A stretch of DNA of 24,124 nt from a virus (UHGV-0149432), one strand, 5' to 3'. Shown: positions 725 through 24,124, numbered from the stretch's first letter. Notes: generated by a model from the letters alone, not told the origin. Translations and numbers: made by a program.

Positions 725-794
725 CTTTTCTCCCTAAATTAACGGTATTAGTAGTTTAACGCTGATTATGTGGATTGAAACCAGCGCTATGAAA
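725..794 (-). promoter_or_regulatory. proximal phoP promoter / 5' UTR remnant and probable prophage attL junction region
   Basis: Only 70 bp separate the integrase stop (795-797) from the phoP start; minus-strand sequence TGGTTTCAATCCACATAATCAGCGTTAAACT...AGGGAGAAAAG resembles a PhoP half-site, -10-like element and SD. Confidence 0.4.
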
Positions 795-2081
795 TTAAAT
801 GACTTTTTTCATACTCCCTCGCCCTTGGGGGCGTCCTGGAGGCAGTGCTGTCGGCATCTGATTGTTCAGCATGTTGACCTGATCCTGGTTCATATCACCA
901 ATCCACTTGGAGTAAACCTCGTATACCATCCGCGCATCTTCATGTCCCATCTGGCTGGCAATGAACGACGGGGTCGCTCCGGCCATCAGCGTCCAGCAGG
1001 CATATGTGTGACGCGACTGATATGGATTGCGCTCACGTATACCTGAAAGTTTAGTCCCACGTTTCCAGCCATACGAAATCGAGTCCTTGGAAAAGTAACC
1101 GCCTTTCGTTGACGAGTATGTTGTCGGTGAAAAAACGAAGCGAAGATATTGCTGCTCAGTTTTTCCGATCTCACGATGATGAAACTGAATTTCCTGTTTT
1201 GGACTGTTCCCAGTGATTTCGTATTGCTCCAGCAGAGCATCATGAGCAGGTTTCAGCAACGTTATCGTCCTTATCCCGGCATCTGTTTTAGGGGGTACAA
1301 ATACTTGCTTGTTCGTCAAATTTCTGGATACGTGGATTTCACCTTTTACCAAATCAATATCTTCCCATGCCAGTGCGCATATCTCGCCCGGCCTCATCCC
1401 TGTATGTACCGCAATAATGATGATTAATGCCTGGCTACGGGGAAGGGCGGCTATCAGTGCCTGGTACTCATGAAGTAAAAGTGGGTCGGGATCATTTTTA
1501 GATAACTTGAGTCGCGACACTCCTTCATAAGGAGCATGCAATATAAACTGGCTTCGGTTTGCAAGCTTCAGCATTTCTGATAAAACAGCCATCTGTTTAT
1601 TGACTGTTGAGGGCGCGCGCCCATTTTTGATGCGGTTTGGTATTGAAGGGTTGAAAACTTCCCCGGTCAGGAGTTCTTTGCGGTAATTCAGAATATCTGC
1701 GTGCTGAATATCAACCAGCCGTGTGTTCTCGCCCACGACTCGTTTCAGGGTGTTAACGACTGATGTGATGGATAGCAAAGTGGCTTCAGATACCTCCAGT
1801 GACTTTGTATCTGTAAAAAAATCACTCAGTTCTTTGAATGTGGAGATCCGTTTTGTGGACGAAAATTTCTTAAGAGCTTTTGATTCCGGGAAACGATCTG
1901 CGTAGTCGAACTTACCGAGTTGTATCTCACTCACAATTGCTGCGCGCAGATTGCCCGCTTTTTTAATGTTGCTACTGTTGACAACCCAACCCTGGAGAAC
2001 TTCGCGGCAACGAATGCCGCGATAGATAAATGTGATCCTGATTTTTCCGTTATGCAGTTCAACACCAGTCGGGTATTTCAT
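795..2081 (-). CDS. int: phage integrase, tyrosine recombinase with N-terminal arm-binding domain
   Basis: 428-aa ORF; N-terminus MKYPTGVELHNGKIRITFIYRG typical of arm-type DNA-binding domain; C-terminal catalytic region with RHTYACW...GHEDARMVYEVYSKW (His/Arg/Tyr); terminal prophage gene, followed by xis. Confidence 0.9.
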   Translation of the reverse strand: MKYPTGVELHNGKIRITFIYRGIRCREVLQGWVVNSSNIKKAGNLRAAIVSEIQLGKFDYADRFPESKALKKFSSTKRISTFKELSDFFTDTKSLEVSEATLLSITSVVNTLKRVVGENTRLVDIQHADILNYRKELLTGEVFNPSIPNRIKNGRAPSTVNKQMAVLSEMLKLANRSQFILHAPYEGVSRLKLSKNDPDPLLLHEYQALIAALPRSQALIIIIAVHTGMRPGEICALAWEDIDLVKGEIHVSRNLTNKQVFVPPKTDAGIRTITLLKPAHDALLEQYEITGNSPKQEIQFHHREIGKTEQQYLRFVFSPTTYSSTKGGYFSKDSISYGWKRGTKLSGIRERNPYQSRHTYACWTLMAGATPSFIASQMGHEDARMVYEVYSKWIGDMNQDQVNMLNNQMPTALPPGRPQGRGSMKKVI

Positions 2082-2296
2082 TAAGCATCCTGAACTAACT
2101 GATTAATCTTCGGGTAGTTGTACCAAAGCAGACCTTTAGAGTTGTCAGTCTGTCCAAGCGCAGTAAGGCGCTTGAAGTGAACACCTTCAACCCATAGCTT
2201 CAGGCGATAATTTTTAATCTGTCCTTCAGTAAGCCCTGTTCTTTCGGTAAGTCTGGACTCAACAACCCACTCTTCGTTAAAAATTACCTGTGACAT
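2081..2296 (-). CDS. xis: excisionase-like protein (DUF1233-type Xis)
   Basis: 71-aa ORF directly upstream of int with overlapping stop/start (ATGA); GAGGTG SD; sequence resembles small excisionases of enterobacterial lambdoid prophages. Confidence 0.7.
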   Translation of the reverse strand: MSQVIFNEEWVVESRLTERTGLTEGQIKNYRLKLWVEGVHFKRLTALGQTDNSKGLLWYNYPKINQLVQDA

Positions 2297-21432: not shown

Positions 21433-23131
21433 ATTCAGATAATAATTTTAATGTCTTAGCATTATTGTATAGTTCATTCCATTGAGGGTACATATTAACT
21501 ATGTTTTTTATAAAATCTTGGGACTCAGACTCAGTAAATGGCCTCTGCTTTTCATAGATATATGCAGAAACCCCTTTACTTAGTTGATATTTTTCATCAA
21601 GTTTTTTATATGCCGAACCTATACCTTTTCTATTTAACAATAAGGTCGCAGGGTAAGAGATGACCCTTTGTCCGTCCTTGTTTAAATGCAACTGTATGGG
21701 GTTAGTAACCACAACATATTTTGTGGAGAAAGCTTCCATCCTGAGTTTATCGCGCAAATCTACTTGAGATACACGGAATACACGAGGGGTAAGCTTGAAA
21801 TTAGATATTGTAAGTAACATATCATCATTTAAGATGTAGTTAGAGCTAAATACAGATATTTTATCGCCACTATTCGTAAGGGCTACAAGTCTATCACTCA
21901 GCCTTTTGTACTCGTCGAAATTGGAAACTTTATATGGGTATAATCCATCAGGAAATATATGGAAGCCATTTTTATAAGAAGGGAATGGTTTGTTAAAAGT
22001 GCTAACAGATATAAGCGTCATGCCTACCATAATTATGGTAAGTAAAGAATGTTCGGCATCCTTGCTCTTGAATAATGATGATATGTAATTTAGCCCAAAA
22101 ATAGAAACAAACAAGAACCACAGAGAGAATGGTAGAACATGATGAATGCCGGGTGTCTGAGTACCAGTAAATAATAGTACACTGATAACAAACGAGAAAG
22201 CAGAGAAAAGAACAAAAACGCTTTGCTTTGTTTTAATGTTTGAAATGGCACTAATTATGCCAAATATAAAAAATGGCATCATAAACAAACCAATATCTCC
22301 AAAAATCACCATAAGTGATTTTGAGAATCCATATTGGTAAGCTGAATACATGGTTGAGTAATCTGTAGATATTATTCTGGCTATTAACTCTTTCTGAATT
22401 AATAATGCAAGGGCAACAGTGATTATTCCTGAGATGAAAAAGTTAATCAATATGTTTTTTGCTTTGTTTAACTCGAACTTAAACTTAACATCATGATAAT
22501 AAGCCACAAAAAAAGGCAAGGTTATATATAAGGTGATGACCGTAAATATATACCATCTTCTAAATGCAAATGGCATCCATAACAGAATGCCGAGAAAAAC
22601 TGATTTAAATAACAATACTCTGTTTGATAAGTTATTTTTTATCGTAAAATAAATCACACAGAGAATAGGTATCAGTCCGACAACATCAGGCAAACCTCTA
22701 AGAGTTGGTTTCCAGAATGGAGTATATAATACAACAAGAATAGCTGTTGTTATTACATAGAATGCTGACTTGTTTTCAAATATTTTTAATAAAATAAATG
22801 TTGCCAATAAAATTACAGGGATTAAATATGTAATGGTTATAGCGTATATGTAAGCACTTCTTGAGTCGATGGGCAGAAATTTAAATGGAAATAATAATGC
22901 TGTAGACAGAGCGTTATAGTCATCCTTTGTTACTGTTGTATAAACAGACATGCCCCAGTCCAACGGGCTCTGGAACAACAGATCGGCGTATCTCATCCAT
23001 TGCATCCAAAAATTTTTGGAGTCCCAAAAGTACACGCTCTGTTCATTACCCATGAATACATGCACATTTAACAGAGCTAAAACTAACACAATCACAAAGG
23101 ATATAAAATATACTTTATTATTCTTTGTCAT
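21431..23131 (-). CDS. gtrC: GtrC-type serotype-specific O-antigen glucosyltransferase (polytopic membrane protein)
   Basis: 566-aa AT-rich ORF with many hydrophobic segments and a hydrophilic C-terminal domain; start overlaps the gtrB stop by 14 nt; canonical gtrA-gtrB-gtrC order. Confidence 0.65.
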   Translation of the reverse strand: MTKNNKVYFISFVIVLVLALLNVHVFMGNEQSVYFWDSKNFWMQWMRYADLLFQSPLDWGMSVYTTVTKDDYNALSTALLFPFKFLPIDSRSAYIYAITITYLIPVILLATFILLKIFENKSAFYVITTAILVVLYTPFWKPTLRGLPDVVGLIPILCVIYFTIKNNLSNRVLLFKSVFLGILLWMPFAFRRWYIFTVITLYITLPFFVAYYHDVKFKFELNKAKNILINFFISGIITVALALLIQKELIARIISTDYSTMYSAYQYGFSKSLMVIFGDIGLFMMPFFIFGIISAISNIKTKQSVFVLFSAFSFVISVLLFTGTQTPGIHHVLPFSLWFLFVSIFGLNYISSLFKSKDAEHSLLTIIMVGMTLISVSTFNKPFPSYKNGFHIFPDGLYPYKVSNFDEYKRLSDRLVALTNSGDKISVFSSNYILNDDMLLTISNFKLTPRVFRVSQVDLRDKLRMEAFSTKYVVVTNPIQLHLNKDGQRVISYPATLLLNRKGIGSAYKKLDEKYQLSKGVSAYIYEKQRPFTESESQDFIKNIVNMYPQWNELYNNAKTLKLLSE

Positions 23132-24074
23132 TTTCCGTTACCTCAGAAATAAAAAACTTTGGTCTTTTTTTACTTTCAATATATATCTTACCAATATACT
23201 CGCCAATCACACCAAGGCAGAGCATTTGAACTCCACCTATAAATAGTACAGCTAAAATCATCGACGCCCATCCACTAACAGTATGTCCAAGAAAATACTG
23301 GGCAAGAGTATATATAACTCCAATTGATGAAAGTATAGAGATAATAAAACCTAAAGCGGTTACGATCCTCAACGGAGTTACTGAGAACGATGTGATTCCT
23401 TCAAGGGCAAGAGCCAGCATTTTTCTGAGCGGGTACTTTGATTCTCCTGCCGCTCGCTCATGACGAGAATAGTACACTTTATCACTTGGATATCCGATCA
23501 GGGGGATAAGACCCCGAATATATAGGTTTTGTTCTTTATACTGTAAAAGGGAGTTGAGCGCCCTTCGACTTAACAGCCTAAAATCAGCATGATTTTCAAC
23601 CTGATTTACACCAAGCCTGGTCATTACCTTATAGAATGCTTCTGCTGTAAACTTCTTAAAAAAACTATCTGAGGTTCTGTCGTTCCTTACTCCGTATACT
23701 ATGTCGTGACCAGAGAGATAGGAGTCAACCATTTTTTCAATCACAGCGGTGTCATCTTGCAAGTCAGCATCAATACTTACAGTAATGTCAGATGTAGTGC
23801 ATGATGATAACCCTGCCATCAATGCAGTCTGATGGCCTTTATTTCGTGAAAGTTTTACCCCTTTCACCAGACAACTGTCACTTGATGCTTCTTCTATTAA
23901 TCGCCAGGTATTATCTTTGCTTCCATCATCAACAAAGACTATATGACTTTCTCTATCTATTTTCCCTTTGTCTTTCATTTCACTCATACGAGATGATAAC
24001 TCATTAAGACAAAGGCTAAAAACATCTTGCTCATTATAGCAAGGCACAACAATGGAAAGAACAGGCGCTTTCAT
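23118..24074 (-). CDS. gtrB: bactoprenol glucosyltransferase GtrB (GT2 family)
   Basis: 318-aa product; N-terminus MKAPVLSIVVPCYNEQDV, DDGSKD and DADLQDD motifs, two C-terminal transmembrane segments; strong resemblance to GtrB/ArnC-like GT2 enzymes. Confidence 0.9.
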   Translation of the reverse strand: MKAPVLSIVVPCYNEQDVFSLCLNELSSRMSEMKDKGKIDRESHIVFVDDGSKDNTWRLIEEASSDSCLVKGVKLSRNKGHQTALMAGLSSCTTSDITVSIDADLQDDTAVIEKMVDSYLSGHDIVYGVRNDRTSDSFFKKFTAEAFYKVMTRLGVNQVENHADFRLLSRRALNSLLQYKEQNLYIRGLIPLIGYPSDKVYYSRHERAAGESKYPLRKMLALALEGITSFSVTPLRIVTALGFIISILSSIGVIYTLAQYFLGHTVSGWASMILAVLFIGGVQMLCLGVIGEYIGKIYIESKKRPKFFISEVTENDKE

Positions 24075-24124
24075 TATTTCATTACCCAGAGTTTATTAAT
24101 TAAAAAACCAGAGATTGTATAGAA

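Follow-up and report, generated by a model that had tools for sequence, protein, structure and literature searches.

A 24-kb element between phoP and purB of Citrobacter koseri is very probably a defective lambdoid prophage

We analysed the 24,124-nt sequence UHGV-0149432 (the window, meaning this whole stretch), annotating its genes from a listing of open reading frames (ORFs) and from Pfam, PHROGs and NCBIfam searches (Table 1). The left end holds chromosomal phoP; from there the window runs through an attachment (att) core, integrase and excisionase genes, a short early region, nin-region and lysis genes, and packaging, head and head–tail genes, and closes with a convergent gtr cluster. Exact-sequence look-ups give Citrobacter koseri as the host. 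Gene content and comparison with related prophages indicate that this element, which lies between phoP and purB, is very probably a defective (cryptic) lambdoid prophage. It is bounded by att repeats at a site also used by related intact prophages, its phage genes follow the order found in those relatives, and essential modules have been lost or inactivated relative to them, leaving two deletion scars and seven genes with point lesions. From att core to att core it measures ~24.0 kb, compared with 42–48 kb for related phages. At about half the size of its intact relatives, the remnant is ordinary as dead prophages go, and its only unusual feature is its insertion inside the phoP promoter.

An 18-bp core identical to that of attL, CATAATCAGCGTTAAACT, is present in one copy at the empty C. 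koseri site, while in a sister copy of the element (L003) attR lies beside purB and carries the 18-bp core with one mismatch (CACAAT). On contigs that share an identical gtrB, the sequence to the right of the window continues through gtrA and a ~460-bp spacer into purB-hflD-mnmA-nudJ-rluE-icd, which places the right end of the element (gtrA, attR) ~670 bp past the window and purB ~0.7 kb past it. Because phoP and purB bound the element, no module is hidden past the window end. An earlier note on this DNA, made from the sequence alone, had argued that the element cannot be a complete phage, while allowing that the missing modules might lie elsewhere in a contiguous prophage. None does: both flanks are chromosomal, the remnant is contiguous between them, and in the whole-prophage comparison that the note proposed, C. 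koseri prophages at the same att site hold the missing early and tail modules exactly at the gaps.

The right-hand scar lies within a single ORF that joins the start of a tail-tube gene to the end of a tailspike gene. The first part of the predicted product is 97% identical to the tube protein of an intact Escherichia coli prophage (L001) as far as residue 177, a stretch that takes in the first strand of its Big_2 domain, and the C terminus is the end of the 672-aa tailspike of an intact C. koseri prophage (L042), with one substitution in 92 residues. Nucleotide homology to L042 begins exactly at 21126 and continues at 96% to the window end. The native stop and terminator of the tailspike gene close the chimeric ORF, leaving 26 bp before the convergent gtrC, and the GC-rich hairpin in this interval is predicted to be a bidirectional terminator common to the late operon and gtrC.

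In intact relatives, the tube gene is followed by DUF6246, the tape measure, three minor tail genes, NlpC/P60 and TipJ, with a fibre gene as well in the E. coli prophages L001 and L008. The purB-side arm of apparently complete C. koseri prophages at this att site (L041–L044) reads attR-umuDC-gtrABC-tailspike-GpJ-like-...-tape measure. No tape-measure, tip or fibre gene lies between the tube ORF and gtrC in the window, and this arrangement is best read as the product of a single deletion, estimated at ~10 kb, that took everything from the later part of the tube gene to most of the tailspike, including the chaperones, tape measure and distal tail. The earlier note was thus right that tail genes are absent between tube and gtr, but its tube gene is itself a tube::tailspike chimaera. 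The C-terminal 92–102 residues had no match in phage genomes (tblastn) or in a collection of 5.8 billion proteins; their tailspike origin was found via a conspecific prophage with a gtrC variant.

The left-hand scar is a 3′ fragment of a RecT-like gene, aligning to residues 171–369 of Gifsy-2 STM1008 and to positions 474–619 of the 633 in PHROG 561. The window is 97% identical to an intact C. koseri prophage (L047) from phoP to 3071, where nucleotide homology ends and the sequences diverge. In apparently complete C. koseri prophages at this att site (L045–L047, L051, L053, L056 and L057), the phoP-side arm runs int-xis-DUF4060-RecT-ExoVIII-...-HTH repressor-YdaS-YdaT-RepO. The left deletion has a readable counterpart in these prophages and appears to begin midway along the RecT-like gene and to take in exoVIII, the repressor/cro pair and the replication genes. 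As the earlier note had it for the CI/Cro pair and replication genes, Pfam and PHROGs searches of all ORFs of at least 60 aa found no repressor/Cro, replication or recE gene between xis and the nin-like region, and tblastn of the window gave no match to five Gifsy-2 proteins (CI, Cro, CII, O and P) or to repressor, Cro, O and DnaB sequences from two E. coli relatives. No antiterminator family matched between xis and the nin-like genes in the Pfam and PHROGs scans, in which an N-like protein was not searched for by name.

Comparison with known phages points to a mosaic. Synteny and 62–87% protein identity over STM1007 (DUF4060), RecT, DinI and DUF1367 relate the early arm to Gifsy-2 (NC_010393) and Salmonella phage SPN3UB; the likeness includes a 66-aa gene after DUF1367 and the 48-aa STM1022.1n after ninG, with ninG itself syntenic at ~39% identity. 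Unlike the remnant, Gifsy-2 has recE, cI, cro, cII, O and P between recT and dinI; the two integrases are only 42% identical, and att site and late genes differ. The late arm shares its order, terS-terL-portal-MuF-DUF2213-decoration-major capsid protein-...-terminator-tube, and 61–98% protein identity with intact siphovirus relatives, namely the E. coli NZ_CP067426 prophage (L001), Enterobacter phage ENT1, Klebsiella phage ST101-KPC2phi6.1 and the C. koseri OW969711 prophage (L040). In contrast to the remnant, these 42–48 kb relatives have tail genes after the tube gene, and none has the remnant's stop codons.

Cryptic lambdoid prophages include Rac, DLP12, e14 and CPS-53/KpLE1 of E. coli K-12 and the gtr-bearing remnants SPI-16 and SPI-17 of Salmonella. 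The element resembles these in being integrase-bounded at a phage att site, in its large deletions and pseudogenes, and in retaining a gtr operon, int and xis. It differs in its C. koseri host, in an att site placed in the phoP P1 promoter, and in combining a Gifsy-2-like early arm with the late arm of a DUF6260-capsid siphovirus. Because intact conspecific relatives exist, its deletion scars can be read to the base.

Table 1. Features of the window, with coordinates counted from its first letter.
Feature	Coordinates	Strand	Remarks
phoP, chromosomal flank outside the element	50..724	-	Response_reg and Trans_reg_C domains; phoQ next in sister loci
attL core, AGTTTAACGCTGATTATG	753-770	.	Reverse complement of CATAATCAGCGTTAAACT; single occurrence in the window
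Tyrosine integrase (int), full length	795..2081	-	428 aa; Arm-DNA-bind_2 and Phage_integrase
Excisionase (xis), intact	2081..2296	-	DUF1233 (Pfam)
DUF4060 gene	2361..2600	-	Homologue of Gifsy-2 STM1007
3′ fragment of RecT-like gene	2640..3272	-	Left-deletion scar; last 199 codons only
TolA-C-terminal-domain lipoprotein gene (cargo), intact	3535..3939	-	PF06519; N-terminal lipobox LTIAGC
DinI-like gene, intact in the window	4885..5157	+	PF06183
DUF1367 nin-region gene, intact	5560..6159	+	87% identical to Gifsy-2 STM1020
ninG pseudogene	6386..6948	+	N-terminal piece in frame 2 to TAG 6455; remainder in frame 1 from 6460
Q antiterminator pseudogene	7082..7765	+	In-frame TAG at 7385; TGG→TAG in a CCTGG site
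Holin pseudogene	8315..8587	+	CAA→TAA at 8471
Lysozyme and Rz spanin genes	8587..9533	+	Intact ORFs
terS, terL, portal, Mu-F-like minor head protein	10387..14875	+	Full length; lengths match intact L036–L040
Low-GC moron	14937..15506	+	189 aa; PHROG 4350 (function unknown); no NCBIfam match
DUF2213 scaffold/protease-like gene and head decoration gene	15838..17481	+	398 aa (DUF2213); decoration gene full length
Major capsid protein pseudogene	17493..18572	+	TGG→TAG at 18501, CCTGG site
Three small head-completion genes, intact	18584..19346	+	68 aa, DUF7370, 57 aa
Head–tail gene ("gp10-like" in the earlier note)	19346..19698	+	116 codons; +2 bp (TA) frameshift near 19636
Adaptor-like gene	19964..20332	+	122 codons; TAG at codon 10 (19991); CAG→TAG in a CCAGG site
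Tail terminator remnant	20360..20535	+	~175 bp deleted at 20359/20360; CAG→TAG at 20386
Chimeric ORF, tail-deletion scar	20595..21404	+	Tube codons 1-177 joined in frame at 21125|21126 to last 92 tailspike codons
GC-rich hairpin	21405..21430	.	A and T runs on its sides; sequence read directly
GtrC-type membrane protein	21431..23131	-	566 aa; ~10 hydrophobic segments; 33% GC; adjoins gtrB, gtrA
GtrB-type GT2 polyprenyl-phosphate glycosyltransferase	23118..24074	-	PF00535
gtrA, last 51 nt in the window	24074..24124	-	GtrA_DPMS_TM gene in L003, L004

Between the two scars, disruption goes further than the three genes, ninG, Q-like and gp10-like, named in the earlier note. All three are indeed broken, ninG by a change of frame followed by a stop, Q by an in-frame amber codon that leaves its Pfam profile matching in two pieces (1–100 and 102–218), and the gp10-like head–tail gene by a 2-bp insertion; to these must be added the holin, capsid, adaptor-like and tail terminator genes. 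The holin pseudogene is still 98% identical in nucleotides to its counterpart in L040, an intact C. koseri prophage whose holin has 90 aa. As for the terminase, portal and capsid genes, which the note had taken as intact, terS, terL, portal and the Mu-F-like gene are so, but the capsid gene is not: its amber codon removes the last 22 codons of a 359-codon gene, full-length 359-aa versions of which occur in C. koseri, intact prophages included. Compared with its counterparts in eight relatives (L001, L008 and L035–L040), the DUF2213 gene lacks ~65 codons, without loss of frame.

Five of the lesions are nonsense mutations (7385, 8471, 18501, 19991 and 20386), four of them TAG. Three (7385, 18501 and 19991) are CCTGG→CCTAG or CCAGG→CTAGG changes at Dcm sites (CCWGG), that is, C→T at the inner cytosine on either strand. 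Dcm-type paths account for 21 of the 1470 possible single-base nonsense paths in these genes, so that three or more of five has P ~3e-5; counting transitions only, they are 21 of 345, with P ~2e-3. Deamination of 5-methylcytosine at Dcm sites is a classic mutational hotspot, first seen as amber hotspots in lacI (PMC12606429), and the three nonsense changes would be its expected outcome at Dcm-methylated cytosines. We also considered and rejected the amber codons as a case of recoding or suppression: the ancestral codons are Trp, Trp, Gln and Gln, a tRNA search found no tRNA within the window, and three of the four ambers are at CCWGG sites.

The history we propose starts from a ~42–48 kb phage whose early arm was Gifsy-2-like and whose late arm, of siphovirus type, ended in tailspike-gtrCBA-attR. 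Two large deletions, one from the RecT-like gene through replication and the other from tube codon 177 to 92 codons before the tailspike end, would have made the element non-viable, and point lesions would then have built up without selection in the ninG, Q, holin, capsid, 116-codon, adaptor-like and tail terminator genes. Neither induction nor replication is predicted, because the early modules are gone; late transcription would fail because Q is broken, lysis because the holin is truncated and capsid formation because of the amber codon, and no tail would be made. The gtrB, gtrC, dinI and lipoprotein genes are intact ORFs in the window, as the earlier note had stated, and gtrABC (as an O-antigen modification operon), dinI and the lipoprotein gene are, judging from their sequences, plausibly still functional. 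Excision by Int and Xis is possibly still functional, because int, xis and both att cores are intact.

Some points weigh against this account. The exact progenitor is not in hand and the deletion sizes are estimates, and attributing the three nonsense changes to deamination assumes Dcm in C. koseri. In addition, the 8-kb run from 10387 to 18500 carries no disabling lesion, which is somewhat unlikely by chance given ~seven lesions over ~16 kb; it may have been refreshed by recombination with live phages.

Sister copies, 92–100% identical to the window over shared parts (mostly >96%), carry different extra deletions. L003 lacks window positions 5126-17955, L004 lacks 5342-17820, L005 lacks 9187-9241, 10767-14552 and 17958-19189, and L035 lacks 8802-15854, with int and gtrC also broken. 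These four loci are the same element, the decay of which is ongoing. Because sister strains have deleted head genes, the intact-looking terminase, portal and head genes are leftovers and were not selectively kept. The description in the earlier note, a stripped-down remnant with its head genes kept, therefore holds as to the remnant but not as to selective retention, and the capsid amber means that the head module is not fully intact either. L035 has both big deletions as well as the ninG, Q, holin and adaptor lesions, which are therefore the older ones; its capsid and 116-codon genes are intact and its terminator has CAG. The difference in the capsid gene may reflect repair in L035 rather than a new mutation in the window.

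The comparison of dN/dS between retained and disrupted genes suggested by the earlier note was run against L035 using the Nei–Gojobori method and had no power to reveal in-situ selection, because most genes differ at 0–2 positions and the divergent blocks look like imported recombination tracts. The first such block extends from the DUF2213 C terminus through capsid to the 57-aa gene (16570-19346) and the second is gtrB (23118-24074); with dS of 0.04–0.32 and dN/dS of 0.07–0.8, they suggest recombination from live phages or other gtr loci.

Selection might still act on parts of a dead prophage: either the cargo, made up of gtrABC, dinI and the gene for the TolA-like lipoprotein, or the phage DNA now upstream of phoP could be what keeps the remnant in the population, the other genes being neutral passengers that are deleted around it. 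Such a domesticated island would be compatible with a defective prophage and not opposed to it; we regard it as possible yet rather unlikely, and selection on the cargo as plausible. gtrB, gtrC, the lipoprotein gene, xis and the int-proximal junction are retained in every variant that reaches them (L003, L004 and L035), gtrB and gtrC also occur in L002, L005 and L006, despite various losses of 7–13 kb of phage genes, and exact-sequence contig counts are 52–62 for int, gtr and the other cargo versus 41–45 for the head genes and the fusion ORF. Other species, moreover, keep only the int 3′ end beside phoP. On the other hand, the breaks in L035 fall in gtrC, which is split, and in int, L003 has lost the 3′ end of dinI, many C. 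koseri strains have an empty site, and the divergence between copies is too low for a dN/dS test.

Far less probable is that the element is a head-only satellite that retains its packaging and head genes in order to build capsids of its own and relies on a helper for tails and induction signals, in the manner of the capsid-forming phage-inducible chromosomal islands (cf-PICIs) reportedly described by Alqurainy et al. in 2023. As in cf-PICIs, head and packaging genes without tail genes adjoin an integrase; no truncation affects terS, terL, portal or the minor head genes, int and xis are intact together with the att cores, and C. koseri harbours intact related phages of the same capsid type (L040). 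However, the head set is incomplete, with stops or deletions in the capsid, adaptor-like, terminator and Q genes and a frameshift in the 116-codon gene, so that, unlike in cf-PICIs, capsid and connector genes are broken. Family scans and tblastn found no replication/primase module and no regulator, and gene order and sequence are those of ordinary lambdoid prophages. The loss of the tail is a recent deletion, a single event with an in-frame fusion scar and not an evolved architecture, and head genes have been deleted in sister strains. That a complete prophage was misassembled, with modules dropped or put in the wrong place, has a negligible chance of being correct: nothing was found in favour of it in this case beyond the general tendency of draft assemblies to collapse prophages, whereas the fusion protein occurs with identical sequence on 45 contigs, one of 4.75 Mb, so that the tail deletion is not an artefact, an independent 624 kb metagenome scaffold is 100% identical over the 11 kb covered by the locus, tail-deletion junction included, and phoP and purB are the expected chromosomal neighbours.

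The element is accordingly to be annotated as a remnant with pseudogenes and not as a phage. Routine as a defective prophage, it offers a clean worked example of decay, with deletions mapped to the base, several decay states in one species and nonsense mutations mostly at Dcm sites.

We compared the site in its occupied and empty forms (window 725-800 for attL, L003 9230-9300 for attR and L048 9900-10000 for the empty site). The empty C. koseri site reads GGTTTAcgaaaTGTTTA (a PhoP box), 12 nt, CATAATCAGCGTTAAACT and ~30 nt to the phoP ATG, an arrangement that parallels E. coli K-12, and the att core, at which this family of prophages integrates, coincides with the predicted −10/start region of phoP P1. 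Once the prophage is in place, phoP retains the core and has the int 3′ end in front of it, and the PhoP box is ~24 kb away. No PhoP-box-like motif was found in the int 3′ end upstream of phoP, where the phage arm has one generic promoter-like match (TTCATA-17-CATAAT). The displaced PhoP box, with a near-native −10 (CACAAT), points into the right end of the prophage, ~390 nt upstream of gtrA. The umuDC module of intact relatives is absent from the window-type element, so nothing lies between the displaced promoter and gtrABC. In the intact prophages L041 and L042 (6656-8343), the umuDC-like pair, encoding Peptidase_S24 and IMS polymerase proteins, lies between attR and gtrA.

This geometry raises the tentative, and on balance doubtful, idea that carriers lose PhoP autoregulation of phoPQ and gain PhoP/Mg2+-controlled O-antigen modification, with Int/Xis excision as a possible regulatory switch. 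If true, this loss and gain would extend to those species of Citrobacter, Enterobacter and Lelliottia in which an int scar is all that is left at the site, and excision would restore the native phoP promoter. C. koseri is an opportunistic neonatal pathogen, and the element, sitting within its phoP promoter, may alter PhoPQ autoregulation and put O-antigen modification under PhoP. In the literature library searched, we found no paper describing this att site, the displaced PhoP box or PhoP control of gtr.

The 24 longest C. koseri contigs that carry this PhoP show the site in four states: empty, in many strains; occupied by a prophage covered here over its 10-kb int-proximal arm, from int through the repressor region, which looks intact; reduced to a 4.5-kb remnant with an acyltransferase gene, xis and a shortened int; or reduced to gtrABC, tailspike, xis and a shortened int. 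The 4.5-kb remnant (L049/L050 5522-10001) contains an Acyl_transf_3 gene (possibly an O-antigen acetylase), a DUF6418 gene, xis and the truncated int, and would represent another surface-modification cargo that has outlived its phage.

Beyond C. koseri, the integrase of the window aligns over residues 1–428 to 84–88% identical integrases located 73–74 nt from phoP in seven Citrobacter, Enterobacter and Lelliottia species representatives, and at least nine further species representatives, Scandinavium included, retain nothing but int fragments in the purB-phoP interval. Across the integrase-scan loci (L009–L031), the remnants in this interval measure 0.7–5.3 kb. From these sequences, the purB-phoP site looks like a recurrent prophage graveyard in which the int 3′ end is the last part to persist.

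The gtr cluster lies at the end of the prophage beside att, convergent with the tail genes, as is usual for a gtrABC operon, and gtrC and gtrB have a GC content of 33–38%. A GtrA-family small membrane protein (PF04138) is encoded directly upstream of gtrB in L003, L004 and L035. GtrB shows full-length similarity to ArnC/PgfS-type enzymes, below equivalog cut-offs. The C-terminal third of the GtrC-type protein is hydrophilic; the protein has no Pfam or NCBIfam match, and its relatives were found only in C. koseri and closely related Citrobacter, with none in scans of species-representative genomes and IMG/VR. E. coli genomes and the phage collection contain almost nothing that matches the gtr region at the nucleotide level.

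Two further stretches of the late region may be accessory. Between Rz and terS (9541-10302), three small ORFs (77, 67 and 62 aa) lie antisense on the minus strand; they match no family and may be morons or chance ORFs. The low-GC ORF at 14937-15506, shared by C. koseri and C. freundii, occupies a typical moron slot between the minor head and scaffold genes, where an E. coli relative has a Rap1a/Tai immunity gene.

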